Source: Escherichia coli (GTDB taxonomy: Bacteria; Pseudomonadota; Gammaproteobacteria; Enterobacterales; Enterobacteriaceae). Taken from it: 64,000 nt of DNA. The stretch lies in NCBI RefSeq assembly GCF_003334355.1, contig NZ_QOWP01000008.1; one strand, 5' to 3'. The position numbers were made by a program, and so were the translations under genes. The notes beneath the pieces were generated by a model that was not told where the DNA came from, searched no databases, and was given only the letters and a program-made list of their open reading frames with translations. How positions within the stretch are numbered: position 1 is the stretch's first letter; the number at the start of each line of letters is the position of its first letter. Positions 5,330 to 49,494 of the stretch are shown here, piece by piece.

Positions 5330-5550
5330 GGATTCAACCTTTTACAAATGTGTATCGAATGAAGCATAAGTGTAGTTTGCTTTCATCGCTCTCATCATGC
5401 TGTACGAAACGCGCTTGCGTGGTCAGTAAGAAGTGCCAGACTTTATATTCCACTTTTATTCCTTTTTATTCTTATCGATAGCGTTTCGTTTTTTAAACCG
5501 CAGCGACCTTACCGCTATAGTCAGGTAATCATTAATAAAAGGATAAAAAA

Positions 5551-6369
5551 ATGAAACTGACAACACATCATCTACGGACAGGGGCCGCATTATTGCTGGC
5601 CGGAATTCTGCTGGCAGGTTGCGACCAGAGTAGCAGCGATGCAAAACACATTAAAGTTGGCGTTATAAATGGCGCAGAACAAGATGTCGCGGAAGTCGCT
5701 AAAAAGGTGGCAAAAGAGAAATATGGCCTCGATGTTGAACTGGTAGGATTTAGCGGTTCGTTGCTACCGAACGATGCGACAAATCATGGCGAACTTGATG
5801 CGAATGTCTTCCAGCATCGACCCTTTCTTGAACAAGATAATCAGGCGCATGGTTATAAACTGGTAGCGGTGGGAAATACGTTTGTCTTCCCTATGGCGGG
5901 TTATTCCAAAAAAATCAAAACCGTGGCGCAAATAAAAGAAGGCGCGACAGTGGCGATCCCCAACGACCCGACCAACCTTGGTCGCGCACTTTTACTGTTG
6001 CAAAAAGAGAAGCTAATTACTCTGAAAGAGGGAAAAGGGTTATTACCTACCGCGCTGGATATAACCGATAATCCTCGTCATTTGCAGATTATGGAACTCG
6101 AGGGGGCGCAGCTCCCGCGCGTACTGGATGATCCCAAAGTTGATGTGGCGATTATCAGCACCACTTACATTCAGCAGACCGGGCTTTCTCCGGTGCACGA
6201 CAGCGTATTTATTGAAGATAAAAATTCGCCGTATGTGAATATTTTGGTGGCACGGGAAGATAATAAGAATGCAGAAAACGTGAAGGAATTTCTGCAATCT
6301 TATCAATCATCCGAAGTCGCTAAAGCGGCAGAAACCATCTTTAACGGTGGCGCGGTGCCTGGCTGGTAA
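5551..6369 (+). CDS. nlpA: lipoprotein-28 (NlpA/MetQ family methionine-binding lipoprotein), 272 aa
   Basis: 272 aa; signal peptide plus lipobox LLAGC at residues 19-23; periplasmic binding protein-like. Confidence 0.8.
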   Translation: MKLTTHHLRTGAALLLAGILLAGCDQSSSDAKHIKVGVINGAEQDVAEVAKKVAKEKYGLDVELVGFSGSLLPNDATNHGELDANVFQHRPFLEQDNQAHGYKLVAVGNTFVFPMAGYSKKIKTVAQIKEGATVAIPNDPTNLGRALLLLQKEKLITLKEGKGLLPTALDITDNPRHLQIMELEGAQLPRVLDDPKVDVAIISTTYIQQTGLSPVHDSVFIEDKNSPYVNILVAREDNKNAENVKEFLQSYQSSEVAKAAETIFNGGAVPGW

Positions 6370-6372
6370 TTC

Positions 6373-7296
6373 TCACTCATCCCGCGCCGGACGATTTATT
6401 TTTCTGGCGCGGCGACGGGAATCCATTGAAATCAAAATTACCGATGACAGAATCAGCAGCGTTCCCAGCCAGTCCGGTAATGTGAACGTGATCCCCAGCA
6501 ACAGCAAAGAGAGTAGCGCGCTACTTAATGGTTCTGCACAGCTCAAAATGCTGGCTTTTGGACCGCCAATTAATTGTGCTCCTTTCAGGTACAGACTAAA
6601 TGTCAGGGACGTACCAATGACGATCAAATAAAAAAACGCCAAAATCAAACTGCCGTTAACGACAAAGTTTGTCCCTTGTCTGGCATAAAAAGGCAACAGA
6701 ATCAGACCGCCGATCAGCATACTCCAGCCGACGACAGACAACGTGCCATAGCGGGCAATTAGCGTTGAGGGATAGGTGGTATAGAATGCAGCAGCAAATG
6801 CCGAGGCAATGCCCCAGAACAACGCGGCAGGAGAGATCGATAATGACGTCGGATTACCGTGTGTCACCAATAAAAAAGTCCCGACCAGCGATGTCAAAAT
6901 AGCGCAGAAAACCAGAATGCCCGGGCGCGATTTACGCACCAGTGAGAACCAGGCGACGATAATCGTCGGTGAGAGGAATTGCAGCACCGTTGCCGTGGCT
7001 GCGTTCGATTTTTCGATGGTTAGCAAAAAAGTGAGCTGTACAGTTAGCGCGCCAACCACGGAAAAAATCAGCAGGCTAATGGCATCTTTATGATTGTTAA
7101 TAATAGAAAAGATTTTATCGCCATGAACAAATGACAGCGTCAGTAGAATCAAACCGGCGAATATCAAACGCGTCATAGTCAAAAACTGCGACGACATCTG
7201 GCTTTGCTCCATGATGTATTGCGCGCAGACCCCTGAACTTCCCCACAACACGGCGGCAATCAGAACGTTCAGCATCCCCTTTCTGGTGGAACCCAT
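6373..7296 (-). CDS. yicL: EamA/DMT family inner membrane transporter, 307 aa
   Basis: ORF track 307 aa, about 10 TM segments, position between nlpA and setC. Confidence 0.7.
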
Positions 7297-7406
7297 TTTT
7301 CCCTCTGCATACTGTTTTGTCGTTTATGTATGCAGGCATGATAGCAAAAATGGCGAGGATGGCTCTGTTTGCGCCACGCCGATTTTTCTTAGCCCAGACT
7401 GGTGAG

Positions 7407-8591
7407 CTAAATATCTTTAATAAACAGCAGGCAAATTATCGCAATACCCAACATCCCTATCGCCAGCCAGAACAACGCATGGTAGCTCCAGATTTCAACC
7501 ATAATTCCGTCAACAGAGCCGGCGATAATCCAGCCGACGCGTGAAGTATTTGCATATAACGTTGTCGCAGAGCCTATTTTTTCAGGCATCAGGTCCTGAA
7601 ATTAAAGCATGCCGATACCACAGAGAATACCAAGGAAGATGGCATTAAGAATTTGCAATTCCAGCTCAACCGCCGGAGTCGTCGCCATGAGTACGCTGGC
7701 GTAAAAACACATTCCACTCACGATAGCAATGAGCATTAATAGTCGCTTGCCAATACGTTTCATGTAATAGCCTGCGATTAACATCATCGGAATTTCCAGA
7801 CCGGCAGCGATACCAATCATTTCTCCAGCCAGTTTATCGGTTAGATGCAGTTCATCAATAATAAATAGCGGCATATTTATCATGTAGAGATTATTCGCCG
7901 CCCACATCATTGAACAGACCACAAAAAGTAGCCGCGTATCCCGCTTCCTGTGGGTGGAGGGTAAAATTTCTACGGGTTGGGTAACGACAGGAATATTTCT
8001 TTGTATTGATGGCAAAAACAACCAGACTATCAGCCCGCAAACAACAAATGCGATGGCAGCGGTGAGATACATCACTTTAAAACTAAATCCCATTGCCAGT
8101 TCATAAGCGAGCGGTGGCCCGATAACCCAGGCAAGCGAGATCTGAGCACGTAAAAATGTACTGAACATGACCGTCTCACGGCCTGTTCTGTCGGCGTGTT
8201 CACGGGCGAGGGCGAACATTTGCGGGTTTGCGGTGGAAGCAAAACTACTCAGAAGTACGCCCGTTGAGAGGAGAATGAAGTAGTTGCGATTCCACGCAAA
8301 AAGCGTGCAGGCCAGCACTCCAAATAAGCAACATAGCAGAATCAGTAATTTACGGTCGCCTTGTTTATCGGAGTGCCTTGCCAGAAATTGACTGACCAGA
8401 ATTCCCATAATAGCGCTACCGGTGAAGAAAAAACCTACCATTATAGGACGGGCTTTCAGTTCATCTGCGAGGAATATACTTAGGGTAGGAGTCTGAAGAG
8501 CGCCCGCAATACCCGTCAGAAAGGCGACAAGTAAAAATGCCGCGGCAGTGAGATCAAGTATTTTTGATGGAGTGGTAGCCGTTTTTTGCAT
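7407..8591 (-). pseudogene. setC: sugar efflux transporter SetC homolog interrupted by one in-frame TAA (codon 330 of a 394-codon frame)
   Basis: ORFs 7602..8591 (329 aa) and 7407..7589 (60 aa) are in the same frame, separated only by TAA (minus-strand 7602-7604) plus four codons (F Q D L); 329+1+4+60 = 394 codons, the length recalled for K-12 SetC. Confidence 0.6.
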
Positions 8592-9227
8592 TCTTCTGAA
8601 TCACCGGGCGAAAAAATATAACTGAGTTACAAATAAGTACCAGTCGAATGAGTATTGTATTAAGAATTTTTGAGTATCGCTGATACAACCAGAAAGCAAT
8701 GCTAGCGCAATATTATAGGGCCAGCAATTGAGATTATTAGCAAAAGCATGTTAAGAATTAATTACTGAATTTATATATTAATTATAGTAAGGCAATGAGC
8801 TATTTTTGATAGTAAAAATAAAACAAGTTGATTTGATATATTAAATGAACAAATTAATCTTGATGGCAGTCTGATTATTGGTGAAGTTTATAGTCAGTTT
8901 TTTTCGCCAGCGGTTAAAGAAATAGAATAGTCGTATAAAAAAGGGTGTTCTGGGGCGAGTAAAACAACATCTTCACCTTAATGGCGATACAGTTGGCTGA
9001 GAGTCAGCAGGGGGGCAAATCACCTGCAAATAAACACGGCGCATACTGGCGTGAATATCGCGGATGCGTTCGAGGACAGAAGAACCGACAGGCGGATTCT
9101 TCAGCCGCTCATCGTCCATCACAAAACCTTAGACCAGGTATTCCTGAAGCCGATTGAATATTGAGCAGTAGAAAATATCTGGATTGACAGTATTACAAGG
9201 GGTTGGAGAACGTCAGGAGAGGCATTT

Positions 9228-9322
9228 TGGCGGAAGATCACAGGAGTCGAACCTGCCCGGGACCGCTGGCGGCCCCAACTGGATTTGAAGTCCAGCCGCC
9301 TCACCGGAGACGACGATCTTCC
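9228..9322 (-). tRNA. selC: tRNA-Sec (selenocysteine tRNA), 95 nt including CCA
   Basis: Reverse complement of 9228-9322 reads GGAAGATCGTCGTCTCCGGTGAGGCGGCTGGACTTCAAATCCAGTTGGGGCCGCCAGCGGTCCCGGGCAGGTTCGACTCCTGTGATCTTCCGCCA, the recalled E. coli selC sequence. Confidence 0.92.
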
Positions 9323-9614
9323 GCGCCTCGATTGCTACATGGAGGCGGGGCGCATTATAGCTACTTCCTTGAGTTTCTACATCCCCCAGATCAGTTTTTT
9401 CCGCCTAATACACGCAGCGTATTATCACGAAAGCATTATAGTTCATATAAAACCCATATTTTACAATGATATATGAGCGGAATTAACGCTACCACGATCA
9501 CATAAAACAAGAATCATAAATTAATAACCAGATATCGGAATATTCGCTCTCACAGGGATGGTTTACAAAATGCGTTATCGGTCTCAGCACCCCTATAGCA
9601 TCAAGGAAAAGCAG

Positions 9615-10997
9615 ATGAAGAGTGAAGTGTTGTCCGTTAAAGAGAAAATTGGTTATGGCATGGGAGACGCCGCCAGCCACATTATTTTCGATAACGTAAT
9701 GTTATATATGATGTTCTTTTATACCGATATTTTTGGCATTCCTGCCGGTTTTGTCGGAACCATGTTTTTGGTCGCTCGTGCACTGGATGCGATTTCCGAT
9801 CCTTGCATGGGGTTGTTGGCCGATCGAACGCGCTCTCGCTGGGGTAAATTTCGTCCGTGGGTACTGTTTGGCGCACTGCCATTCGGGATCGTCTGTGTAC
9901 TGGCCTATAGCACGCCAGATCTCAGTATGAACGGCAAAATGATCTATGCAGCAATTACTTACACCCTACTTACCTTACTTTATACCGTCGTCAATATCCC
10001 TTACTGCGCATTGGGTGGTGTAATCACCAATGACCCGACTCAGCGTATCTCGCTGCAATCCTGGCGTTTTGTGCTGGCGACCGCGGGAGGCATGCTTTCT
10101 ACTGTTCTGATGATGCCACTGGTTAATTTAATTGGCGGTGATAATAAACCACTCGGTTTCCAGGGCGGTATCGCGGTCCTTTCCGTGGTGGCATTCATGA
10201 TGCTGGCATTTTGTTTCTTCACCACTAAAGAACGCGTTGAAGCACCACCTACAACAACGTCTATGCGGGAAGATTTACGTGATATCTGGCAAAACGACCA
10301 GTGGCGGATTGTCGGTTTACTAACCATTTTCAATATCCTGGCGGTGTGCGTACGCGGTGGGGCGATGATGTATTACGTCACATGGATTTTGGGCACGCCG
10401 GAAGTGTTTGTCGCTTTTCTCACCACTTATTGCGTGGGTAACCTGATTGGTTCCGCACTGGCAAAACCTCTGACCGACTGGAAATGTAAAGTCACTATCT
10501 TCTGGTGGACGAACGCCCTGCTGGCAGTGATTAGCCTCGCGATGTTCTTTGTTCCCATGCAGGCCAGCATCACTATGTTTGTCTTCATCTTCGTGATTGG
10601 TGTGTTGCATCAACTGGTGACACCTATCCAGTGGGTAATGATGTCCGATACCGTCGACTACGGCGAGTGGTGCAATGGTAAACGCCTGACCGGGATCAGT
10701 TTTGCTGGCACGCTGTTTGTGCTCAAACTGGGGTTGGCCTTCGGCGGCGCTCTTATCGGCTGGATGCTGGCTTATGGCGGATATGATGCGGCAGAAAAAG
10801 CGCAGAACAGCGCCACGATTAGCATCATTATTGCGCTATTCACGATTGTTCCGGCGATCTGTTATTTGCTGAGCGCGATTATCGCTAAACGCTACTACTC
10901 ACTCACGACGCACAATCTGAAAACCGTTATGGAACAGCTGGCTCAGGGTAAACGCCGTTGCCAGCAACAATTCACCTCTCAAGAAGTGCAGAACTAA
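9615..10997 (+). CDS. yicJ: GPH/MFS family sugar:cation symporter YicJ-like, 460 aa
   Basis: ORF 9558..10997; ATG 9615 (MKSEVLSVKEKIGYGMGD) gives 460 aa; melibiose-permease-like; forms operon with the downstream alpha-xylosidase. Confidence 0.75.
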   Translation: MKSEVLSVKEKIGYGMGDAASHIIFDNVMLYMMFFYTDIFGIPAGFVGTMFLVARALDAISDPCMGLLADRTRSRWGKFRPWVLFGALPFGIVCVLAYSTPDLSMNGKMIYAAITYTLLTLLYTVVNIPYCALGGVITNDPTQRISLQSWRFVLATAGGMLSTVLMMPLVNLIGGDNKPLGFQGGIAVLSVVAFMMLAFCFFTTKERVEAPPTTTSMREDLRDIWQNDQWRIVGLLTIFNILAVCVRGGAMMYYVTWILGTPEVFVAFLTTYCVGNLIGSALAKPLTDWKCKVTIFWWTNALLAVISLAMFFVPMQASITMFVFIFVIGVLHQLVTPIQWVMMSDTVDYGEWCNGKRLTGISFAGTLFVLKLGLAFGGALIGWMLAYGGYDAAEKAQNSATISIIIALFTIVPAICYLLSAIIAKRYYSLTTHNLKTVMEQLAQGKRRCQQQFTSQEVQN

Positions 10998-35243: not shown

Positions 35244-37008
<1,765 letters not shown>

Positions 37009-37320
37009 AGTAAATAGCTGACTTATGGATGTGCTGGGGATTCTATGTATTTAGCTGTGGCTTTACCATTACTTTTCCCGTTTTTGACTTAAATAGCAAT
37101 TTACCCGCCAATTCTTGCTGAACATCTATACTTTTTTTGTATTTTATGCGATTCATTGATTTCTGCTGTACGTGCAGGAAGGAATCGCAGAGCAACAGTG
37201 AAAGAATATGGTTGCTAATGATTATATTTGATTGATTTCTTTATTGAAAATCAACAATGTGCTTAAAAATCATTCGGGTCGGATTGCCGCGAAAGAAGTG
37301 ATACACTAGCGCGTCAATAT

Positions 37321-37370
37321 CAGTGCGGTATCAGTATTCAGGTAGCTGTTGAGCCTGGGGCGGTAGCGTG
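37321..37370 (+). promoter_or_regulatory. JUMPstart element with ops site (GGCGGTAGCGTG at 37359-37370), RfaH-dependent antitermination signal for the waaQ operon
   Basis: cagtgcggtatcagtattcaggtagctgttgagcctggggcggtagcgtg matches the JUMPstart/ops consensus, about 50 bp upstream of waaQ. Confidence 0.75.
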
Positions 37371-37419
37371 CTTTTTCTGCTTCACCTTAATCGGATAATC
37401 TCAACAAAAAGAGTTACTT

Positions 37420-38478
37420 GTGGATAAGCCATTTCGAAGAATTTTGCTCATTAAGATGCGTTTTCATGGGGATATGTTATTAACTACTCCCGTCATTAGT
37501 TCGCTGAAAAAAAATTACCCTGACGCAAAAATCGATGTGCTGCTTTATCAGGACACCATCCCGATCCTGTCTGAAAATCCAGAGATTAACGCGCTCTACG
37601 GCATAAAAAATAAAAAAGCAAAAGCCTCAGAAAAAATTGCCAACTTTTTTCATCTCATCAAGGTATTACGTGCCAATAAGTATGACCTTATCGTCAATCT
37701 TACCGATCAATGGATGGTTGCTATACTGGTTCGCTTATTAAATGCCCGTGTGAAAATTTCCCAGGATTATCATCATCGGCAGTCTGCTTTTTGGCGTAAA
37801 AGTTTCACCCATTTGGTGCCGTTGCAGGGTGGAAATGTGGTGGAAAGTAACTTATCCGTGCTGATACCATTGGGACTTGATTCGTTGGTGAAGCAGACAA
37901 CCATGAGTTACCCGCCTGCAAGCTGGAAACGTATGCGTCGCGAACTTGATCACGCTGGTGTTGGACAAAATTATGTGGTTATCCAACCTACGGCGCGGCA
38001 AATCTTCAAATGCTGGGACAACGCCAAGTTTTCCGCTGTGATTGATGCCTTACATGCTCGTGGTTATGAAGTCGTTCTGACGTCCGGCCCAGATAAAGAC
38101 GATCTGGCCTGCGTCAATGAAATTGCGCAGGGATGCCAGACGCCACCAGTAACGGCGCTGGCTGGAAAGGTGACCTTCCCGGAACTTGGTGCGTTAATCG
38201 ATCATGCGCAGCTGTTTATTGGCGTTGATTCCGCACCGGCGCATATTGCCGCTGCAGTTAATACGCCGCTGATATCGCTGTTTGGTGCGACAGACCATAT
38301 TTTCTGGCGTCCCTGGTCAAATAACATGATTCAATTCTGGGCGGGAGATTACCGGGAAATGCCAACGCGCGATCAGCGTGACCGAAATGAGATGTATCTT
38401 TCGGTTATTCCGGCGGCAGATGTCATTGCTGCTGTCGATAAATTACTGCCCTCCTCCACGACAGGTACGTCGTTATGA
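37420..38478 (+). CDS. waaQ: LPS heptosyltransferase III (GT9)
   Basis: ORF track 352 aa; start codon in the track is GTG at 37420 (exact start uncertain); RILLIKMRFHGDMLLTTPVISSLKK heptosyltransferase N-terminus. Confidence 0.8.
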   Translation: MDKPFRRILLIKMRFHGDMLLTTPVISSLKKNYPDAKIDVLLYQDTIPILSENPEINALYGIKNKKAKASEKIANFFHLIKVLRANKYDLIVNLTDQWMVAILVRLLNARVKISQDYHHRQSAFWRKSFTHLVPLQGGNVVESNLSVLIPLGLDSLVKQTTMSYPPASWKRMRRELDHAGVGQNYVVIQPTARQIFKCWDNAKFSAVIDALHARGYEVVLTSGPDKDDLACVNEIAQGCQTPPVTALAGKVTFPELGALIDHAQLFIGVDSAPAHIAAAVNTPLISLFGATDHIFWRPWSNNMIQFWAGDYREMPTRDQRDRNEMYLSVIPAADVIAAVDKLLPSSTTGTSL

Positions 38479-39599
38479 TCGTTGCTTTTTGTTTATATAA
38501 ATATTTTCCCTTTGGCGGTTTGCAGCGCGATTTTATGCGTATTGCTCAGACAGTCGCCGCCCGAGGTCATCATGTTCGGGTTTATACCCAGTCGTGGGAA
38601 GGCGAATGCCCTGATGTATTTGAACTGATCAAAGTACCGGTTAAATCGCATACCAATCACGGGCGCAATGCGGAGTATTTTGCCTGGGTGCAAAAACATT
38701 TACGCGAACATCCCGTCGATAAAGTCGTTGGATTCAACAAAATGCCGGGGCTGGACGTTTATTATGCCGCTGATGTTTGTTATGCCGAGAAAGTAGCGCA
38801 GGAGAAAGGCTTTTTCTATCGCCTGACGTCACGTTATCGCCATTATGCCGCCTTTGAGCGGGCAACCTTCGAACAGGGTAAGCCGACACAGCTGCTGATG
38901 CTGACAGATAAGCAAATCGCCGATTTCCAGAAACATTATCAGACTGAAGCGGAGCGTTTTCATATTCTGCCACCGGGGATTTATCCTGATCGTAAATATA
39001 GCCAGCAGCCAGCCAATAGCCGTGAAATCTTCCGTAAGAAGAATGGAATAACCGAACAACAATATTTATTGTTGCAGGTCGGTTCAGACTTCACGCGTAA
39101 AGGTGTCGATCGTTCCATTGAAGCACTTGCTTCGTTACCGGATTCGCTGCGCCACAACACATTGCTATATGTTGTTGGGCAGGATAAACCGCGAAAATTT
39201 GAGGCACTGGCAGAAAAACGCGGCGTGCGCAGTAATGTTCACTTCTTCTCGGGGCGCAACGATGTCTCGGAATTAATGGCGGCGGCGGATTTATTACTGC
39301 ATCCTGCCTACCAGGAAGCGGCGGGAATTGTGCTGCTGGAAGCGATTACTGCAGGATTACCGGTACTAACAACAGCCGTTTGTGGCTATGCGCATTATAT
39401 TGTCGAGGCCAATTGCGGCGAGGCTATTGTTGAGCCATTCCGCCAGGAAACATTGAATGAGATTTTACGCAAAGCGTTAACGCAATCTTCATTGCGCCAG
39501 GCCTGGGCGGAAAATGCGCGACATTATGCTGATACACAAGATTTATACAGTCTGCCAGAGAAAGCGGCGGATATCATAACGGGTGGTCTGGATGGTTGA
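38475..39599 (+). CDS. waaG: LPS core alpha-1,3-glucosyltransferase I (GT4), 374 aa
   Basis: 374 aa; [24 protein letters not shown]; 4-bp overlap with the waaQ stop. Confidence 0.85.
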
Positions 39600-40389
39600 A
39601 CTTAAAGAGCCGTTTGCCACGTTATGGCGCGGCAAAGATCCTTTTGAGGAAGTTAAAACCTTGCAGGGTGAGGTATTTCGTGAACTGGAAACTCGCCGTA
39701 CTCTGCGCTTTGAAATGGCGGGCAAAAGCTATTTTCTCAAATGGCATCGCGGCACGACCCTGAAAGAGATAATCAAAAATTTACTCTCATTGCGGATGCC
39801 AGTATTAGGCGCTGACCGCGAATGGAATGCGATTCATCGACTGCGGGATGTCGGCGTTGATACTATGTATGGGGTGGCATTTGGCGAAAAAGGCATGAAT
39901 CCGCTGACCAGAACTTCATTTATTATTACCGAAGATCTGACACCAACCATAAGTCTGGAAGATTACTGTGCTGACTGGGCGACTAACCCTCCAGATGTTC
40001 GCGTAAAGCGTATGCTTATTAAGCGTGTCGCGACGATGGTGCGCGATATGCATGCTGCGGGCATTAACCACCGTGACTGTTATATCTGTCATTTCCTGCT
40101 GCACTTGCCTTTTTCCGGTAAGGAAGAGGAGTTAAAAATTTCGGTAATTGACCTGCACCGGGCGCAGCTTCGCACGCGCGTTCCACGTCGTTGGCGGGAT
40201 AAAGATCTTATTGGGCTTTATTTTTCTTCGATGAATATCGACCTGACTCAGCGGGATATCTGGCGGTTTATGAAAGTGTATTTTGCCGCCCCGCTTAAAG
40301 ACATTCTCAAGCAGGAACAAGGACTGCTGTCGCAAGCAGAAGCAAAAGCCACAAAAATCAGGGAAAGAACGATTCGAAAATCGTTGTAA
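39592..40389 (+). CDS. waaP: LPS core heptose(I) kinase, 265 aa
   Basis: ORF 39583..40389; start [21 protein letters not shown]; kinase-like HRDCYICH motif. Confidence 0.85.
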
Positions 40390-40404
40390 TTTCCGGAGAG
40401 AAAT

Positions 40405-41421
40405 ATGAGTGCCCACTATTTTAATCCACAAGAGATGATCACTAAGACAATCATCTTCGATGAAAGGCCAGCGGCGTCAGTGGCATCATCATTCCATGTT
40501 GCTTATGGCATTGATAAAAACTTTCTTTTTGGTTGTGGTGTTTCAATCACGTCAGTTTTGTTACATAACAACGACGTGAGTTTTGTTTTCCACGTTTTTA
40601 TTGATGATATCCCTGAAGCCGATATCCAGCGTTTAGCCCAATTGGCGAAAAGCTATCGTACCTGTATCCAGATCCATCTGGTAAATTGTGAACGGCTTAA
40701 GGCATTACCGACGACCAAAAATTGGTCTATTGCCATGTATTTCCGTTTTGTAATTGCAGATTACTTTATTGATCAACAAGATAAGGTTCTTTACCTGGAT
40801 GCTGATATCGCCTGTCAGGGAAACTTAAAGCCGCTGATAACAATGGATCTTGCCAATAACATTGCTGCTGTTGTTACTGAACGCGATGCTAACTGGTGGT
40901 CGTTACGGGGTCAAAGTCTGCAGTGTAATGAACTTGAAAAGGGTTACTTTAATTCAGGTGTCCTGTTAATTAATACACTAGCGTGGGCGCAGGAGTCCGT
41001 TTCTGCTAAAGCGATGTCGATGCTTGCTGATAAAGCCGTCGTTTCCCGTTTAACCTATATGGATCAAGATATACTTAATCTTATCCTGTCAGGGAAAGTT
41101 AAATTCATTGATGCTAAATACAATACGCAATTTAGTTTAAATTATGAATTAAAAAAATCATTTGTTTGTCCAATTAATGATGAAACCGTATTAATTCATT
41201 ATGTCGGCCCGACAAAACCCTGGCATTACTGGGCCGGTTATCCAAGTGCGCGACCTTTTATCAAAGCCAAAGAGGCATCGCCCTGGAAAAATGAACCGTT
41301 AATGCGGCCAGTTAACTCAAACTATGCTCGTTATTGCGCCAAGCATAATTTTAAACAAAATAAACCAATTAACGGGATAATGAATTATATTTATTATTTT
41401 TATTTAAAGATAATAAAATGA
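40405..41421 (+). CDS. waaO: family-8 LPS alpha-1,3-glucosyltransferase (WaaO/WaaI type), 338 aa
   Basis: GT8 signatures (YGIDKNFLFG, LYLDADI, NSGVLLIN); first outer-core gene after waaP; symbol assigned by position in an R1/R4-type order. Confidence 0.65.
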   Translation: MSAHYFNPQEMITKTIIFDERPAASVASSFHVAYGIDKNFLFGCGVSITSVLLHNNDVSFVFHVFIDDIPEADIQRLAQLAKSYRTCIQIHLVNCERLKALPTTKNWSIAMYFRFVIADYFIDQQDKVLYLDADIACQGNLKPLITMDLANNIAAVVTERDANWWSLRGQSLQCNELEKGYFNSGVLLINTLAWAQESVSAKAMSMLADKAVVSRLTYMDQDILNLILSGKVKFIDAKYNTQFSLNYELKKSFVCPINDETVLIHYVGPTKPWHYWAGYPSARPFIKAKEASPWKNEPLMRPVNSNYARYCAKHNFKQNKPINGIMNYIYYFYLKIIK

Positions 41422-41437
41422 AATTGAGAAAAGTTAA

Positions 41438-42433
41438 ATGAATGAATTTATAAAAGAACGGTTTTCGTATTTAGCAGATAATAAAAAAGAAAACGCCCCA
41501 GAGCTAAATGTTTCCTACGGTATCGATAAGAATTTTTTGTATGGTGCTGGCGTTTCAATTTCTTCCGTTTTGATTAATAATTCAGATATTAATTTTGTCT
41601 TTCATGTTTTCACTGATTATGTGGATGATGATTATTTAAAGTCATTTAATGAAACAGCAAAACAATTTAATACCTCAATTATTGTATATTTAATTGACCC
41701 CAAATACTTTGCTGATCTGCCGACGTCACAGTTTTGGTCGTACGCGACATACTTCAGGGTATTGTCTTTTGAATATCTGAGTGAAAGTATTTCCACACTG
41801 CTGTATCTGGATGCCGATGTTGTTTGTAAAGGAAGCCTGAAACCTCTCACAGAAATTATATTTAAAGATGAGTTTGCTGCGGTCATTCCTGACAATGATA
41901 GTACGCAGGCGGCATGTGCAAAACGCCTCAACATTCCCGAAATGAATGGACGTTATTTCAATGCAGGCGTTATCTATGTCAATCTTAAAAAATGGCATGA
42001 AGCAAATTTGACACCGTATTTACTCAAGCTTTTACGAGGGGAAACTAAATATGGCTCTCTTAAATATTTAGATCAGGATGCGTTGAATATCGCATTTAAT
42101 ATGAATAATATCTACCTCGGGAAGGATTTTGATACTATTTATACCCTGAAAAATGAACTTCATGATCGTAGTCATCGAAAGTTTCAGCAAACCATTACCG
42201 ATAAAACAGTATTGATTCACTATACAGGGATAACTAAACCATGGCATAGCTGGGCTGGATATCCGTCTGCATCATACTTTAATATCGCGCGTGAACAATC
42301 TCCCTGGAAGAAATATCCTCTTAAAGAGGCGCGGACTGTTGCAGAAATGCAGAAACAATATAAGCATCTGTTTGCCCATGGTGAGTATATAAAAGGCATA
42401 ACTTCATTAATTAAGTACAAGCTTAAGAAATAA
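41438..42433 (+). CDS. waaT: family-8 LPS alpha-1,2-glycosyltransferase (WaaT/WaaJ type), 331 aa
   Basis: GT8 signatures (YGIDKNFLYG, LYLDADVVCKGSL, NAGVIYVN); paralogous to the ORF at 43161; symbol by position. Confidence 0.55.
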   Translation: MNEFIKERFSYLADNKKENAPELNVSYGIDKNFLYGAGVSISSVLINNSDINFVFHVFTDYVDDDYLKSFNETAKQFNTSIIVYLIDPKYFADLPTSQFWSYATYFRVLSFEYLSESISTLLYLDADVVCKGSLKPLTEIIFKDEFAAVIPDNDSTQAACAKRLNIPEMNGRYFNAGVIYVNLKKWHEANLTPYLLKLLRGETKYGSLKYLDQDALNIAFNMNNIYLGKDFDTIYTLKNELHDRSHRKFQQTITDKTVLIHYTGITKPWHSWAGYPSASYFNIAREQSPWKKYPLKEARTVAEMQKQYKHLFAHGEYIKGITSLIKYKLKK

Positions 42434-42442
42434 ATTACTCTT

Positions 42443-43135
42443 ATGATTACAAGTATACGTTATCGCGGCTTCTCATTTTATTACAAAGATAATGATAATA
42501 AATATAAAGAAATCTTTGATGAAATACTGGCCTATAATTTTAAAACAGTAAAAGTATTACGTAATATTGATGATACCAAAGTATCGTTGATTGATACGAA
42601 ATATGGTCGCTATGTTTTTAAAGTCTTTGCTCCGAAAACGAAAAGGAATGAACGTTTTTTAAAATCTTTTGTAAAAGGTGACTACTATCAGAATTTGATC
42701 GTTGAAACCGATCGTGTCAGAAGTGCAGGTCTTACTTTTCCTAATGATTTTTATTTTCTGGCTGAGCGTAAAATTTTCAACTATGCCAGTGTTTTTATCA
42801 TGCTTATCGAGTATGTCGAGGGCGTAGAGCTCAATGATATGCCGATTATTCCAGAAAATGTTAAAGCAGAAATTAAGGCTTCAATGGAAAAATTGCATGC
42901 CTTAAATATGCTATCGGGCGACCCACACCGGGGTAATTTTATCGTTAGTAAAGATGGTGTCAGGATAATTGACCTATCCGGTAAAAGCTGTACGGCAGAG
43001 CGTAAAGCTCGTGATCGTCTGGCCATGGAACGTCACCTGGGTATTGCCAACGAAATAAAAGATTATGGCTACTATTCAGTAATCTACAGAACCAAACTAC
43101 GCAAATTTATTAAAAAATTAAAAGGCAAAGCGTAA
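42443..43135 (+). CDS. waaY: LPS core heptose(II) kinase WaaY, 230 aa
   Basis: MITSIRYRGFSFYYKDNDNKYKEIFDEILAYNFKTVKVLRN; kinase-like, AT-rich. Confidence 0.75.
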   Translation: MITSIRYRGFSFYYKDNDNKYKEIFDEILAYNFKTVKVLRNIDDTKVSLIDTKYGRYVFKVFAPKTKRNERFLKSFVKGDYYQNLIVETDRVRSAGLTFPNDFYFLAERKIFNYASVFIMLIEYVEGVELNDMPIIPENVKAEIKASMEKLHALNMLSGDPHRGNFIVSKDGVRIIDLSGKSCTAERKARDRLAMERHLGIANEIKDYGYYSVIYRTKLRKFIKKLKGKA

Positions 43136-43160
43136 ACCACACAGTCAAAACGGAACCAAC

Positions 43161-44189
43161 ATGGATTTATTAGCTGAGAGTATTTCTGAAGTCGCTGTCT
43201 CTGGGGAAATTGCTAACACCGATCGTGTGTTAAATATCGCTTACGGTATTGACCGTAACTTTTTATTTGGTGCGGCAGTATCTATGCAATCAGTTGTTAT
43301 GCATAACCCGGACCTTGCGGTTAAGTTTCATCTCTTTACCGACTACATTGATGAAGATTATCTACAACGTGTTAATGCTTTTACCAGCAAAAATGCTAAC
43401 GTTGAAGTAAGAATTTATAAAGTCTCCAATGCCTTTATTGATATCTTCCCCAGCCTGAAACAGTGGTCTTATGCAACATTCTTCCGTTTAGTTGCGTTCC
43501 AGTATCTGAGTGAAACTATTGAAAATCTGTTATATATCGATGCTGATGTCATCTGTAAAGGCTCATTAGCTGGATTGCTTGATATTAATTTTGATGGGGA
43601 TAAGTTTGCAGCTGTTATTAAAGATGTGCCTTTTATGCAGGAAAAACCAGCGAAGCGTCTGGCTATAGAGGGACTTCCAGGGAATTATTTCAACGCCGGT
43701 GTAGTATATCTGCAGCTTGAAGCATGGGCGAAAAATGATTTTATGAATAAAGCCATTGCTATGCTGGCAAGTGACCCGCAGCACACGAAGTATAAATGCC
43801 TTGATCAGGATATTTTAAATATTCTGTTTTTTGGTCATTGTATTTTTATTAGCGGCGATTATGATTGCTTTTATGGCATCGATTATGAGTTAAAAAATAA
43901 AAGCGATGAAGATTATAAAAAGACCATTACCGATGATACTAAGCTGATTCATTATGTTGGCGTAACGAAGCCCTGGAACGACTGGACGAATTATCCCTGC
44001 CAGAACTATTTTAATGAGGCTTATCAGGCTTCTTGCTGGAATGATGTGGCGTTTATTCCAGCCACGAATGAAAAGCAGTATCAAGTGAAATCCAGACATT
44101 TGAAAAGAAATGGTAATATTGCATCTTCATTTTACTATTTCATGCTCTATTATAGTAAGAAAATAGCGCGTAAGCATTTTTCCAAATAA
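43161..44189 (+). CDS. waaW: family-8 LPS alpha-1,2-glycosyltransferase (WaaW/WaaR type), 342 aa
   Basis: GT8 signatures (YGIDRNFLFG, LYIDADVICKGSL, NAGVVYLQ); clear paralog of 41438..42433; symbol by position. Confidence 0.55.
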   Translation: MDLLAESISEVAVSGEIANTDRVLNIAYGIDRNFLFGAAVSMQSVVMHNPDLAVKFHLFTDYIDEDYLQRVNAFTSKNANVEVRIYKVSNAFIDIFPSLKQWSYATFFRLVAFQYLSETIENLLYIDADVICKGSLAGLLDINFDGDKFAAVIKDVPFMQEKPAKRLAIEGLPGNYFNAGVVYLQLEAWAKNDFMNKAIAMLASDPQHTKYKCLDQDILNILFFGHCIFISGDYDCFYGIDYELKNKSDEDYKKTITDDTKLIHYVGVTKPWNDWTNYPCQNYFNEAYQASCWNDVAFIPATNEKQYQVKSRHLKRNGNIASSFYYFMLYYSKKIARKHFSK

Positions 44190-44220
44190 TTATTAAGATT
44201 AATCATCCAGAGATTTTTTA

Positions 44221-44994
44221 ATGAACTTGCCCATTTATATTGTCTCACTTAAAAGAGATATTGAGCGAAGAAATAAAATAAATGATGTTTTTCATCGATT
44301 AAATATTAATTTTGATTTTTTTGATGCCATAGATGCTAAAGACCCTCAAAATAAAGAAATTATTGATAAAATGAGATTAAGTGGTGTCGGCGCAGAAATG
44401 ACTGATGGAGAAATTGCTTGTACATTAAGTCATCAACTTATATATCAGGATATGATAGATAAAAATATAGAATGGGCAGTCATTCTCGAGGATGATGTTA
44501 TCGTCAATGAGAAATTTAAAAAATTTCTGCAATATTTTAATCTTTCTGAAAAAGACAAGTTAAAACATAATAATTTGTATTTGCTTGGAGGACAGAAAGG
44601 ATTACATGATTATCCGGTATTGGGGCAAAGCCTTTTTAGTAAAGTTAAGGTAAGTACTTGTACTTTTCGGCGTGTTAATTTCAATAAAAATAAAATTCGG
44701 CGTACATGTTCATATTTGATGAATAAAGATATGGCACAAAAGTTGCTCAAATTGACAAAGGATTATGGCACCTATCGAGCTGATAGCTGGAAGTTAATGC
44801 ATCAACATAATATTATAAAAGAGTTTTATTTAGACGAAATAATATTACATCCTATTTTAAATGAGTTTAATAGTCATCTTGAAAGTGAAAGGCTATTAAC
44901 ATCGGAAAAAAAACAACCTAGAACAAGGCTTCAGAAAAGAATGAAGTTTATACGCTCCTGGATAAAGGTGGCTTTTTTTTCTCTTTTGAAATGA
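44221..44994 (+). CDS. family-25 LPS beta-glycosyltransferase (Lic2A/LgtB-like); candidate WaaX-type beta-1,4-galactosyltransferase, 257 aa
   Basis: N-terminal IYIVSLKRDIERR...FDFFDAIDAKDP and downstream ILEDDVIV resemble GT25 (Lic2A/LgtB) proteins; sits at the waaV/waaX position immediately before waaL. Confidence 0.55.
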   Translation: MNLPIYIVSLKRDIERRNKINDVFHRLNINFDFFDAIDAKDPQNKEIIDKMRLSGVGAEMTDGEIACTLSHQLIYQDMIDKNIEWAVILEDDVIVNEKFKKFLQYFNLSEKDKLKHNNLYLLGGQKGLHDYPVLGQSLFSKVKVSTCTFRRVNFNKNKIRRTCSYLMNKDMAQKLLKLTKDYGTYRADSWKLMHQHNIIKEFYLDEIILHPILNEFNSHLESERLLTSEKKQPRTRLQKRMKFIRSWIKVAFFSLLK

Positions 44995-45028
44995 GATTGT
45001 TAATTTCAATTTGTTGTGAGATATTAAC

Positions 45029-46282
45029 GTGGAAGTAAAAATTGAGCAATTTCGAAATAATAGCTGTAATTTTATTTTTTTATTGTATTTAATCGGTTTG
45101 TTGTTTGTGCCAATTGATCTTAATATCACCACTAAAATAATTAATGCGACAGGTGCATTTTCTCTTTTCTTATTAATTGTAAATAAAAAGCATAATTATA
45201 ATAAAAATGTCATTATATTAATTCTTGGTTTACTTCTTTTGGGTGCAATGAACCTGATATGGTATGAATTTTATAAAACAGAAGATGTAGTATATAGAAA
45301 TGCTTATCGAGGCTACCTTGAGTCTGGAAAACTATTAGTATTTAGCTCGTTGACATTTTTATTACTAAGTAAAAATAAATTCAGGCAAAATGAAAAACTA
45401 CATTTTATTTCAGCCATCTTAGTTCAAATAATCATGCTATGTAGAGCATATTATCAAGGGATATATTTGCATGCAGACCGCATTCCCCTCTCCGCCATGA
45501 ATGGGAATATTGGTCAAATGGGGGCAGCGACTATTGCGGCTTATGTGATTACATTCACCACTTTATATTCTTCAATTGTATTCATCAAAATGCAATCGAA
45601 ATATAAATGGTTTCTATTTTATGCTAACTTTGCTTTAAGTTTTGCTGCAGTAACAATGACTGGCACTAGGGCGGCGATTTTTACATTCCCACTAATGATT
45701 ATGGTTATTTTATTAATACAATATCGTAATCAGAGAGTGTTTTTATTTAAAGGATTGAGTGGTTTCTTTTTTTTATTTCTAGTATGCGGATTAATATTCA
45801 ATAAGGGAATTGAAAGACGGATCAACGCATTACAAACAGATGTGATTTCCTATACTACAAAAAATAATAGCAATTCATCAGTAGGTGCGCGGTTTGCTAT
45901 GGTTAATGCAGGTATTAAGGGTAGTCCCGATACTTTAGGATGGCAATCCCTTGAAGAGCGAGCCAAAAAGATAAAAGCTTTAAGTTTAGATAATAATATT
46001 TATAATAGTGTTCTTCCTTTTCTGGATGTACATATGCATAACGAAATTGTGGAATCTCTTTCCACGAAAGGAAAAATTGGTCTTCTTGTTCTTATTATGT
46101 TCTATGTTGCAATGATCTATTACTGTATCCGGGAGAAAAAATATATACTCTTGGTTTTCCCTGCTTCTATTATGTTATTTGGCATTAGTGATGTCATTAC
46201 ACATGCTAAACCAATACCGGCATCGTGGATTGTGTGCCTCTTCCTGTCTACATCGTTTTTGAGTAAAAAAGAACCACAATAA
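45029..46282 (+). CDS. waaL: O-antigen ligase, 417 aa polytopic membrane protein
   Basis: About 10-12 predicted TM helices, very AT-rich, last gene of the waaQ-direction operon; GTG start in track (exact start uncertain). Confidence 0.65.
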   Translation: MEVKIEQFRNNSCNFIFLLYLIGLLFVPIDLNITTKIINATGAFSLFLLIVNKKHNYNKNVIILILGLLLLGAMNLIWYEFYKTEDVVYRNAYRGYLESGKLLVFSSLTFLLLSKNKFRQNEKLHFISAILVQIIMLCRAYYQGIYLHADRIPLSAMNGNIGQMGAATIAAYVITFTTLYSSIVFIKMQSKYKWFLFYANFALSFAAVTMTGTRAAIFTFPLMIMVILLIQYRNQRVFLFKGLSGFFFLFLVCGLIFNKGIERRINALQTDVISYTTKNNSNSSVGARFAMVNAGIKGSPDTLGWQSLEERAKKIKALSLDNNIYNSVLPFLDVHMHNEIVESLSTKGKIGLLVLIMFYVAMIYYCIREKKYILLVFPASIMLFGISDVITHAKPIPASWIVCLFLSTSFLSKKEPQ

Positions 46283-46297
46283 TAAAAGCGTTGACTA

Positions 46298-46333
46298 AGT
46301 AAGTGGGTATAATACCCACTTACTATTTATTAA
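46298..46333. terminator. bidirectional terminator between convergent waaL and waaC
   Basis: perfect 13-bp inverted repeat agtaagtgggtat / atacccacttact (46298-46325) followed by T-rich tract. Confidence 0.6.
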
Positions 46334-47289
46334 ATCAATGTGATTTTTTTATAAACAGCCGCTGCTTCTAAATTATTTAAATTCATTAGCGGAGCCCTAC
46401 AAACCATCTGATTCTTCCCATACCCGCCAATTAATCCAGGGTCGGTAGGTCCATAAACCGTGATATTGGGTCTATCCAGTGCCGCCGTTAAATGGCTTAA
46501 CCCCGTATCCACCGACACTACAAATTTAGCCCCGGCCAGCACGCGGGCAACGCCTTCCAGACTCATCTTAGGCAATACTTCAACATAAGCAAATCCTTCC
46601 GCCAGTCGTTTCGCCCGTTCTTCCTCATGCGGCGCGCCCCACGGAAGTTTAATCCGTATTCCTGAATCAGCCAGTAAACCAATCAATTCTCGCCAGTGTT
46701 CTTCCGGCCAGTGTTTATCATCACGGGTCGTCGCATGAAGAAATACGGCATATTCGCCAGCATCTGTAGGCAGGTTCGTCAGAAAATGCTGTGCGATAGC
46801 ATAATCGCCCTGGGTTTGCGGTTTGCTATAGCCCAAACTTTTGGCAAACAGTTCGCGGGTGCGTTCTACGGCGTGCTGCTGTTTTGCAATATGATGCTTA
46901 CGATTGTAAAACAGACTGGCTAAAGGTTCGCGAGCGGTTTTCCAGTCCATGCCATGCTTTACGCCATGCGCCAGACGCGTCACCAGCGCCGCGCTTTTTA
47001 CCAGCCCCTGAGCGTCGATAACTGCGTCATAGTTCTCTGCTTGTAGCGCTTCACGAAACGCTTTGCGTTCCGCTTTTATGGGGGCCGAGAACCAGGCTTT
47101 ACGCCAGCGACGTATTGCCACAGGAATAACTCGCTCAACGGCAGCGTGCCAGGAAGGAATCTGTGCGAACCCTTCTTCCACCACCCAGTCAAACTTAATC
47201 CCTGGGATTGCCTGCTGGGCATCAGTGAGTGCGGGCAACGTATGGAGAACATCGCCCATCGACGATGTTTTAACGATCAAAACCCGCAT
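46330..47289 (-). CDS. waaC: LPS heptosyltransferase I, 319 aa
   Basis: MRVLIVKTSSMGDVLHTLPALTDA; GT9. Confidence 0.9.
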   Translation of the reverse strand: MRVLIVKTSSMGDVLHTLPALTDAQQAIPGIKFDWVVEEGFAQIPSWHAAVERVIPVAIRRWRKAWFSAPIKAERKAFREALQAENYDAVIDAQGLVKSAALVTRLAHGVKHGMDWKTAREPLASLFYNRKHHIAKQQHAVERTRELFAKSLGYSKPQTQGDYAIAQHFLTNLPTDAGEYAVFLHATTRDDKHWPEEHWRELIGLLADSGIRIKLPWGAPHEEERAKRLAEGFAYVEVLPKMSLEGVARVLAGAKFVVSVDTGLSHLTAALDRPNITVYGPTDPGLIGGYGKNQMVCRAPLMNLNNLEAAAVYKKITLI

Positions 47290-47292
47290 CCG

Positions 47293-48339
47293 TCAGGCTT
47301 CCTCTTGTAACAATAGCGCGTTGAGTTCTTCCAGTACGCGCTGGGGAGTAATGTCGATTAAGCTCTGGTGATAACCCTCCGCAGCGTCACCTTTACGCAC
47401 TTTGTGATAGCCGGTAATCAAACGGATCACGCGCGCTTTATGGGATAGCGGCGGTGTGAAGTCCGGGCTACTCGGACCATACAGGGCAACCAGCGGACGA
47501 TTGAGCGCCGCCGCAACATGCATCAGGCCAGAATCGTTAGTGACAATGGCTTTACAGGCTGCAATCAGGATAACCGCTTGATCAAGCTGTGTTTCCCCCG
47601 CCAGGTTCCGACACCATGCCTGCTGCTCGGTATTCAAAGCGGCAAGAATCTCATTGCCCGCTTCATGATCTTTCGCCGAGCCAAACAGAACCACCTGATA
47701 ACCTTCATCAATCAGCTGCTTTGCCAGCTCCGCATAGTGGTAGTGTGGCCAGCGTTTTGCCGGACCAAACTCCGCACCCGGGCAAAAACCAATCATCGGA
47801 CGTTCTGATGAAAGCGAAAATTGATTACAGGTATATGATTTTTCACCTTCGCTCACCTGCAACTGCGGCCATAACAATGGCTGCGGCAGATCTTGTGCTG
47901 TGCGCATAATGCCTTTGTCATAGGCCAGCGCTATATAGCGTTCCACCATTAGCGGCCAGGCTTCTTTAGCGAGCACGCGTACATCGTTGAGTAAACCGTA
48001 GCGCATCTCGCCGCGCCAGCCGGTGCGATGAGGAATACCCGCGAAGAAAGGCACTAATGCAGATTTGAAGGAGTTGGGTAAGACGTAGGCGCGGTCGTAG
48101 CGCTTTTCACGCAGGCTATGACCCAGTTTGCGGCGTTCGCCGATTTCCAGCGCTCCGTGACCGAGAGGCATAGGAATAGCTTCGTTAACTTCCGGCATCC
48201 GCGATAATAATGGACGGCACCATGCCGGTGCCATCACATCGATTATCGCCTGGGGATAGCGCGCCTGGAGCGTGCGATAGAGACTTTGCGACATCATCAT
48301 GTCGCCAACCCAAGACGGGCCGATCACCAGTATTTTCAT
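47293..48339 (-). CDS. waaF: LPS heptosyltransferase II, 348 aa
   Basis: MKILVIGPSWVGDMMMSQSLYRTL; GT9; 3 bp upstream of waaC. Confidence 0.9.
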   Translation of the reverse strand: MKILVIGPSWVGDMMMSQSLYRTLQARYPQAIIDVMAPAWCRPLLSRMPEVNEAIPMPLGHGALEIGERRKLGHSLREKRYDRAYVLPNSFKSALVPFFAGIPHRTGWRGEMRYGLLNDVRVLAKEAWPLMVERYIALAYDKGIMRTAQDLPQPLLWPQLQVSEGEKSYTCNQFSLSSERPMIGFCPGAEFGPAKRWPHYHYAELAKQLIDEGYQVVLFGSAKDHEAGNEILAALNTEQQAWCRNLAGETQLDQAVILIAACKAIVTNDSGLMHVAAALNRPLVALYGPSSPDFTPPLSHKARVIRLITGYHKVRKGDAAEGYHQSLIDITPQRVLEELNALLLQEEA

Positions 48340-48348
48340 GCAGAGCTC

Positions 48349-49281
48349 TTATGCGTCGCGATTCAGCCAGGCCATGTATTCCGTTACACCTTCAGCAACG
48401 GTTTTGAACGGTTTGTCGTAACCCGCCGCGCGCAGATTCGTCAGATCTGCCTGAGTGAACGCCTGATAGCGGCCTTTCAGTTTATCCGGGAACGGAATGT
48501 ATTCGATCTGGCCTTTCTTGTGATAAGCCAGCGTAGCATCAGCTACAGCCTGGAAGGATTCCGCACGACCAGTACCGAGATTGAAGATGCCGGAAACGCC
48601 ATTTTCCAGGAACCACAGATTCACATCAGCCACGTCGCCCACATAGACGAAGTCGCGTTTGAAGTTCTCGCTACCTTCAAACAGCTTCGGTGATTCACCG
48701 TTGTTAAGCTGGGTGTTGAGATGGAAAGCGACGCTCGCCATGCTGCCTTTATGGCCTTCACGCGGTCCATAAACGTTGAAATAACGGAAGCCAACAATCT
48801 GCGAGTTCGCTTCAGGCAGGATTTGACGAACATATTCATCAAACAGGAATTTTGAGTAACCGTAGACGTTCAACGGTTTTTCGTACTCGCGGGATTCAAT
48901 AAAGTCGGAGGTGCGTCCGCCGTAGGTGGCCGCGGAAGATGCATACAGGAACGGGATTTCGCGCTCCAGACAGTAGTGCAGCAGCTCTTTGGAGTATTGA
49001 TAGTTGTTATCCATCATATACTTGCCATCCCACTCGGTGGTGGAAGAGCATGCGCCTTCGTGGAAAATCGCTTCGACATCGCCGAACTCTTCGCCAGCCA
49101 TAATCTGGATCAGGAAGTCTTCCTTATCCATATAGTCCGCGATATCCAGATCCACCAGGTTCACAAACTTGGTGCCGTCTTTCAGGTTGTCCACCACCAG
49201 AATATCGGTGATGCCTTTATCATTCAGGGCCTTAACGATGTTGCTGCCGATAAAGCCCGCGCCGCCGGTAACGATGATCAT
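48349..49281 (-). CDS. hldD: ADP-L-glycero-D-manno-heptose 6-epimerase, 310 aa
   Basis: [23 protein letters not shown] Rossmann NAD-binding motif; first gene of the hldD-waaF-waaC operon. Confidence 0.9.
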
Positions 49282-49494
49282 AACTGTAACCTTCGAATTA
49301 TGGAGTCAGAGACAATCTCAGACACGAATACTTCTATCATATCACTACACGGCGTTGGCTTCAGCCATTCGCCAAAAGTGAGATTGATGGACGTTATTTA
49401 TCCTGAATTTTGCAGAAGTGTTAACGCGTCATCTCGTCGCGACCTATAAGTTTGGGTAATATGTGCTGGAATTTGCCCTGTCTGGAGAATCGCA

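Follow-up and report, generated by a model that had tools for sequence, protein, structure and literature searches.

The subject of this analysis is a 64-kb stretch of Escherichia coli DNA (64,000 nucleotides of contig NZ_QOWP01000008.1, assembly GCF_003334355.1; hereafter the window), and within it a six-gene, AT-rich cassette at positions 40405-46282 that belongs to the waa locus for the core of lipopolysaccharide (LPS). The cassette and its flanks very probably constitute, on the evidence of their sequence, an R4-type waa locus of E. coli, intact and in the standard arrangement. The locus, its typing as R4, its low GC content and its spread via homologous recombination have all been published, and we add no new biology to them. 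Core type governs which ligase attaches O-antigen or enterobacterial common antigen (ECA) to the core, and where, and it governs the recognition of rough and semi-rough cells by phages and antibodies, so that an R4 call is a useful annotation.

Assignment of the locus to the R4 core type

The open reading frame (ORF) map places six intact ORFs on the + strand between 40405 and 46282: waaO, waaT, waaY, waaW, waaX and waaL. A note made earlier from the sequence alone (the original prediction) had listed them as six AT-rich genes on the waaQ strand, encoding GT8, GT8, the WaaY kinase, GT8, GT25 and WaaL proteins, and had set them between waaQ-waaG-waaP and a convergent waaC-waaF-hldD group. Its coordinates are exact and its families hold, as do its flanks: RfaQ, GT4 (WaaG) and RfaP on one side, and RfaC, RfaF and HldD, encoded on the - strand, on the other. 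The operon thus reads waaQ-G-P-O-T-Y-W-X-L, with the ligase gene last and convergent with hldD-waaF-waaC, and annotated R4 genomes are laid out identically.

The gene that separates R4 from R1 is waaX (44221..44994, + strand, 257 aa), predicted to encode a GT25 beta-galactosyltransferase. Its product matches Pfam PF01755 (Glyco_transf_25) over residues 4-186 with E = 2.1e-51, which places it within the GT25 family, and it matches the solved GT25 structures 8XC8 and 8XLZ with E of about 1e-13. The gene lies between waaW and waaL, and there is no waaV. Trofimova et al. 2025 (PMC13293308) published nine primers for core typing. When these were matched to the entire window, allowing up to 3 mismatches, only two found a site, both of them exactly: R1R4-R at 44030-44049 and R4-F at 44391-44409, inside waaX. 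Together they define an in silico amplicon of 380 bp (44030..44409), the size published as diagnostic for R4 (PMC13293308). The typing primers for R1, R2, R3 and K-12 matched nowhere in the window at this stringency; the R1 diagnostic amplicon, obtained with primers R1-F and R1R4-R, is 842 bp long (Trofimova et al. 2025, PMC13293308).

The waaL allele also serves for core typing (Leclercq et al. 2021, PMC8715443). WaaL of the window shares 92.8-100% of its amino acids with WaaL of waaX-carrying genomes, compared with 35.5% for R1 WaaL and 31.6% for K-12 WaaL. The gene (45029..46282, + strand, 417 aa) is the terminal gene of the waaQ operon, and its product has the make-up of a Wzy_C O-antigen ligase, being polytopic, with a Wzy_C domain (Pfam PF04932, E = 9e-8), a large loop and conserved Arg and His residues. 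It matches the WaaL structure 7TPG (E = 5e-6), and hydropathy gives it about 10 hydrophobic stretches and a large hydrophilic loop at about residues 259-343. In an alignment of 14 WaaL homologues R214 and R288 are invariant and H337 is nearly invariant (at least 90%); we take these three to be the catalytic residues, from what is known of mutagenesis of K-12 WaaL.

Genome surveys find the cassette in many E. coli genomes. The whole 5878 bp is 99.4-100% identical in DNA to complete E. coli genomes among the matches listed, UMNK88 for example, and coverage of this query reaches 80% or more in 691 genomes. Likewise waaX is present, at 80% coverage or more, in 691 of 5426 complete E. coli genomes. 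The waaO-waaW part is common to 2529 genomes, and those that share this first part alone lose the blastn match at about window position 44118. WaaX and WaaL occur in exactly the window's sequence on at least 1000 contigs apiece; sources call the former 'Beta-1,4-galactosyltransferase' and the latter 'Lipid A-core surface polymer ligase WaaL'. R4 is uncommon in phylogroup A, at 5.1% (PMC13293308).

The R4 prototype locus is reportedly that of strain F2513, said to have been described by Heinrichs and co-workers in 1998. The window has the order of the R4 type, waaQ-G-P-O-T-Y-W-X-L, its GT25 waaX and its typing amplicon, with no difference at the level of the system. The original prediction had favoured an R1/R4-type order with a terminal ligase over K-12, R2 and R3, and had named core-type primers as one means of checking it; the R4 pair alone matches, and the K-12, R2 and R3 types, whose specific genes are waaS/B/Z/U, waaK and waaD/J, are further set apart by the different layout of K-12 and by the position of the window's waaL on the waaQ strand.

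A mosaic waaL allele

Within the R4 type the window differs from the majority in its waaL allele. A comparison of the 3' two-thirds of the gene (45450-46330) in 693 genomes carrying R4 waaL resolves two discrete allele classes: 77 genomes are at least 99% identical to the window, 615 are 80-90% identical, and a single one falls at 95-99%. The window carries the minority class (77/693). Both classes belong to one 90% protein cluster.

What separates them is a mosaic patch of 385 bp at 45640..46024 (+ strand, about codons 205-332). Of the 102 nucleotide differences from a majority-class genome, 91 lie inside this patch, a divergence of 23.6% compared with 1.3% over the remainder of waaL (Fisher p = 4e-38); outside it, the two classes are 98-100% identical in waaL and throughout the cassette. 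Synonymous divergence (dS) between the classes at codons 206-331 is 1.36 and nonsynonymous divergence (dN) 0.14, compared with dS of 0.03-0.15 in the rest of waaL and 0.007-0.09 in the other eight waa genes. The patch is an old divergent segment introduced by intragenic recombination, not a product of recent diversification, and its dN/dS of about 0.1 argues for purifying selection. A search for its donor found none: proteins that do not belong to the E. coli cluster reach at most 67% identity. Within the patch, the identity of outgroup ligases to the window allele exceeds that to the majority allele by only 3-7 points, a weak hint that the window allele may be the older version. We found no description of the two-class waaL mosaic in the literature searched.

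The patch might alter the working of the ligase, through its specificity or through exposure to phages or the immune system, and the R4 of the window would then be functionally unlike majority R4. Were this so, with a change in the glycans ligated, the efficiency of ligation or phage and host exposure, R4 would be two functional types, not one. The distribution of changes could be read in this way: 28 of the 30 amino-acid changes fall within residues 209-330 (identity in the patch is 78%), a span that by hydropathy takes in a pair of predicted membrane helices and the greater part of the hydrophilic, predicted periplasmic loop, which holds the invariant R288, and nothing intermediate lies between the two discrete classes. 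However, R214, R288, H335 and H337 are conserved and unchanged between the classes; the low dN/dS ratio is what purifying selection on an old divergent segment would leave, not recent adaptation; and WaaX and the remaining cassette are the same in both, so that the acceptor structure should match as well. We regard a functional difference between the classes as unlikely and treat the two-allele R4 waaL mosaic as a small lead for research on ligase specificity.

An apparent third waaL lineage, represented by a protein (P0124, 84% identical), was rejected: the contig that encodes it (GCA_900608365.1, UWYG01000002.1, 82310-101230) is frameshifted across the locus and is likely a poor assembly. 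Its waaO is cut to 256 aa and its waaX to 73 aa, and its waaL is split. The frameshifts, in waaO, waaT, waaX and waaL, most likely reflect an error-rich assembly in AT-rich DNA, and this assembly gives rise to spurious divergent protein entries in databases.

Extent and origin of the exchanged block

GC content falls sharply at the cassette, to 0.347 over 40405-46282 from 0.519 in the rest of the window. Among 429 other segments of the same length the minimum is 0.460 (mean 0.516, sd 0.023), which puts the cassette about 7 sd lower, so the claim that it is poorer in GC than its neighbours survives a sliding-window check. By gene, GC declines from 0.38 in waaO to 0.30 in waaX and 0.32 in waaL; waaQGP is intermediate, at 0.476. 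The drop at this locus, including a slight one at waaQGP, and the inference of horizontal transfer were published previously (Leclercq et al. 2021, PMC8715443).

What truly testifies to exchange is not AT-richness but the fact that flanks like those of K-12 enclose an operon unlike that of K-12. We aligned 35731-49281 to the corresponding regions of UMNK88 (R4, same waaL class), FDAARGOS_1276 (R4, the other class), ABWA45 (R1) and K-12 MG1655. The window and MG1655 have their loci at the same site between waaA and hldD, with the JUMPstart/ops leader kept. In DNA, waaA and waaC-waaF-hldD match at 98-100% identity, the waaQ operon at only 40-83%. In gene content K-12 has waaS-B-O-J-Y-Z-U, its waaL lies within the hldD-waaF-waaC operon and htrL stands beside hldD; the K-12 layout given in the original prediction (waaS-B-O-J-Y-Z-U, ligase on the hldD side) is indeed that of the MG1655 locus. 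The place of htrL, between kbl and hldD in K-12, is taken in the window by a 213-bp spacer (49282-49494), an arrangement shared by the R1 and R4 genomes examined.

Identity to K-12 is lost at 37098, which lies some 90 bp upstream of the start codon of waaA, and recovers at about 46392. Since waaQ, waaG and waaP also diverge from K-12 (62-83% identity in DNA; 71.8%, 89.8% and 83.8%, respectively, in protein) while the flanks do not, the exchanged block is wider than the six-gene cassette: against a backbone like that of K-12, the unit that was swapped is the whole waaQ operon, about 9.3 kb (about 37098-46392). The description of waaQ-waaG-waaP as conserved is accordingly right as to function but not as to sequence, at 72-90% protein identity. 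The right breakpoint is the same, at about 46392, whether the window is compared with K-12 or with R1, and the last 20 or so codons of waaC (46330-46392) vary by core type. It follows from the shared breakpoint that the C-terminus of WaaC travels with the outer-core cassette.

The near-identity of the backbone to K-12 points to exchange through conserved flanks, waaA on the left and the 3' end of waaC on the right. By this alignment the locus must have reached its lineage, or the K-12 locus that of K-12, by homologous recombination and not on a mobile element, and to this extent the proposal of a laterally exchanged module stands, the inference of transfer being itself already in print. Leclercq et al. 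2021 (PMC8715443) see in the locus an old polymorphism exchanged by homologous recombination, and they report having detected no homologue of its variable region beyond Escherichia and Shigella.

A classical genomic island, imported recently from a low-GC donor outside the Enterobacteriaceae, would account for GC values of 0.30-0.38 beside flanks of 0.52. GT25 enzymes, moreover, are well known in the synthesis of lipooligosaccharide by Haemophilus and Neisseria. The locus, however, has none of the attributes of a mobile island. The ORF map of the window shows no integrase, transposase, insertion sequence (IS) or tRNA in or beside it; no direct repeats were found at its borders, and the breakpoints lie inside waaC and in the waaA-waaQ spacer, that is, within conserved surroundings. 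Gaps between cassette genes (40405-46329) are at most 47 bp, the coding space being filled by waa genes. Carriage by phage or plasmid was not seen either: the phage collection gave no match to the cassette genes, and apparent plasmid copies were rejected, the waaW, waaX and waaL matches being to records of 3-10 kb fragments or to a 4.9-Mb record mislabelled as a plasmid. The artefactual 'plasmid' records are NZ_CP070033.1, NZ_CP034391.1, NZ_CP059911.1 and NZ_CP134663.1.

Relatives within the Enterobacterales also argue against such an import. At the protein level, WaaL homologues 50-67% identical occur in Citrobacter amalonaticus, Kluyvera, Leminorella, Obesumbacterium and Shimwellia; for the Citrobacter ligase (P0114) a search for its contig gave no record. 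A contig of a GC-rich enterobacterium of another species (ENA ERZ23879511 NODE_17, 5439-10263) has at the same site waaQ-G-P, two GT8 genes, waaY, a GT25 gene and waaL, likewise convergent with waaC-F-hldD. Its WaaY is 87%, its GT25 protein 67% and its WaaL 60% identical to those of the window; it differs in having only two GT8 genes, whose products are 42-44% identical to WaaO and WaaT, and no equivalent of waaW. This cassette too is AT-rich, with GC of 0.37-0.48 against 0.58-0.66 in its flanks. An AT-rich syntenic cassette in a GC-rich host implies that loci of this class have long been AT-rich and that the low GC is no sign of recent import. With the published view of an old polymorphism pointing the same way, we consider the island explanation very improbable.

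Distinction from R1 and from R1/R4 hybrids

The R1 genome ABWA45 (NZ_CP022154.1) has the same operon layout as the window and is 97-100% identical in DNA from waaQ to about codon 310 of waaW. The block that differs, 44092-46392, comprises the last 98 or so nucleotides of waaW, which are R4-specific, together with waaX, waaL, the hairpin spacer and the tail of waaC. Where the window has its GT25 waaX (257 aa), ABWA45 carries a GT2 waaV (327 aa; source name 'Beta1,3-glucosyltransferase WaaV'), followed by a different ligase, which is the R1 arrangement. The original prediction had left R1 and R4 side by side; the R4 half is borne out by the GT25 waaX and the 380-bp amplicon, and the R1 half falls.

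Hybrids of the two types exist, ECOR46 being one (PMC13293308), and a second, R1-type waaV-waaL pair might lie elsewhere in the genome. The 64-kb window, however, has a single waaL and lacks waaV, no transposase lies in the locus, and the search with 45450-46330 returned a single place in every matching genome; a hybrid is on these grounds highly implausible. That the locus is itself R1, for all the identity of its first part and its gene order, can be dismissed, as primer R1-F has no match in the window at up to 3 mismatches, the protein encoded at the waaV position is of the GT25 family and only 25% identical to the GT2 enzyme, and WaaL, at 35.5% identity to R1 WaaL, has no DNA similarity to it that blastn detects.

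No feature of the sequence counts against the R4 reading; the qualifications concern names, linkages and function. The window has the minority waaL allele, and ligase activity is assigned to this form from its sequence. The linkage made by WaaX is disputed, being given as beta-1,4 (PMC13293308, and also in a source name) or as beta-1,3 (PMC3526765). WaaO carries conflicting names: NCBIfam and PGAP call it 'lipopolysaccharide 3-alpha-galactosyltransferase', and elsewhere in the same 90% cluster it is 'UDP-glucose:(glucosyl)LPS alpha-1,3-glucosyltransferase'; published R1/R4 structures place glucose at the position to which WaaO adds. Finally, the steps of core assembly proposed below are drawn from the established pathway, and their sugar linkages and ligation site rest on the literature.

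Predicted assembly of the R4 core

The R4 core oligosaccharide has a Gal-Gal-Glc-Glc backbone with a beta-Gal branch. Its synthesis would begin with a single RfaH-dependent transcript running from upstream of waaQ, through the JUMPstart/ops leader, across waaQ-G-P-O-T-Y-W-X-L. WaaG would add the first glucose onto heptose II and WaaO the second hexose, in alpha-1,3 linkage; WaaT and WaaW would then supply two alpha-1,2-linked galactoses, and WaaX, as an inverting GT25 enzyme, the beta-galactose side branch that defines R4 relative to R1. WaaP and WaaY are expected to phosphorylate heptoses I and II, and WaaQ to add heptose III. Once the lipid A-core had been exported to the periplasmic face, WaaL would transfer undecaprenyl-pyrophosphate-linked O-antigen or ECA onto it; the ligation site assumed for R4 is the beta-Gal branch (PMC7504096).

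Other genes and features of the locus

Upstream of the cassette on the + strand lie the three genes of the waaQGP group. The product of waaQ (37420..38478) is a putative heptosyltransferase III of an R1/R4-type allele (NCBIfam RfaQ, 712 bits, cut-off 467), with 99.4-99.7% amino-acid identity to R1 and R4 genomes and 71.8% to K-12. Next is waaG (38475..39599), assigned from RefSeq annotation of syntenic genomes as the GT4 glucosyltransferase I for the first outer-core glucose (89.8% amino-acid identity to K-12 WaaG), and then waaP (39592..40389), predicted to encode heptose(I) kinase (NCBIfam RfaP, 479 bits, cut-off 170; 83.8% identity to K-12).

The products of three cassette genes, waaO, waaT and waaW, all match the enterobacterial GT8 LPS transferase model. 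The first, waaO (40405..41421, + strand, 338 aa), is a predicted GT8 alpha-1,3 hexosyltransferase for the second outer-core hexose, scoring 612 bits against NCBIfam NF011718 (cut-off 461); it is 97.6-97.9% identical in amino acids to R1 and R4 genomes and 49.9% to K-12 WaaO. The product of waaT (41438..42433, + strand, 331 aa), a probable GT8 alpha-1,2 transferase, is recognised by Pfam Glyco_transf_8 (E = 1.5e-72) and Glyco_transf_8C and is 98.8% identical to R1 and R4 genomes. That of waaW (43161..44189, + strand, 342 aa) is assigned as a GT8 alpha-1,2-galactosyltransferase by the same two Pfam domains and by its RefSeq product name, and it matches the LgtC structure 1G9R (E = 5e-17). Between the last two lies waaY (42443..43135, + strand, 230 aa), whose product is a putative heptose(II) kinase (NCBIfam RfaY, 401 bits, cut-off 248).

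On the far side, the convergent waaL and waaC are separated by a hairpin with a 12-bp stem (46298..46324, + strand), detected in a terminator scan as a match to the consensus only; it is likely to be a bidirectional terminator. Beyond it, all on the - strand, come waaC (46330..47289), for a predicted heptosyltransferase I (NCBIfam RfaC, 631 bits, cut-off 437), and the inner-core operon genes waaF (47293-48339) and hldD (48349-49281), named from RefSeq annotation of syntenic genomes and each 99.7% identical in amino acids to K-12.

The waaQ leader contains a JUMPstart element at 37332..37370 (+ strand; Rfam RF01707, 55.2 bits, gathering score 35), and inside it, at 37359-37366, is the ops sequence GGCGGTAG. 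The segment 37314-37385 that holds them is the counterpart of the K-12 rirA small RNA and waaQ 5' untranslated region, from which it differs by 5 substitutions and 1 deletion, and is the only well-conserved island in an operon otherwise divergent from K-12. A promoter scan gave 25 matches where 29.7 are expected from shuffling, that is, below chance, and no promoter was called.

Elsewhere in the window, the gene for tRNA-Sec (selC), a classical site of island insertion, lies at 9232-9322 on the - strand. The genome closest to the window, MLI023K1, has nothing but a rhuM remnant beside selC. It also carries an IS1 within yicI, absent from the window, which accounts for a 776-bp offset between the two.

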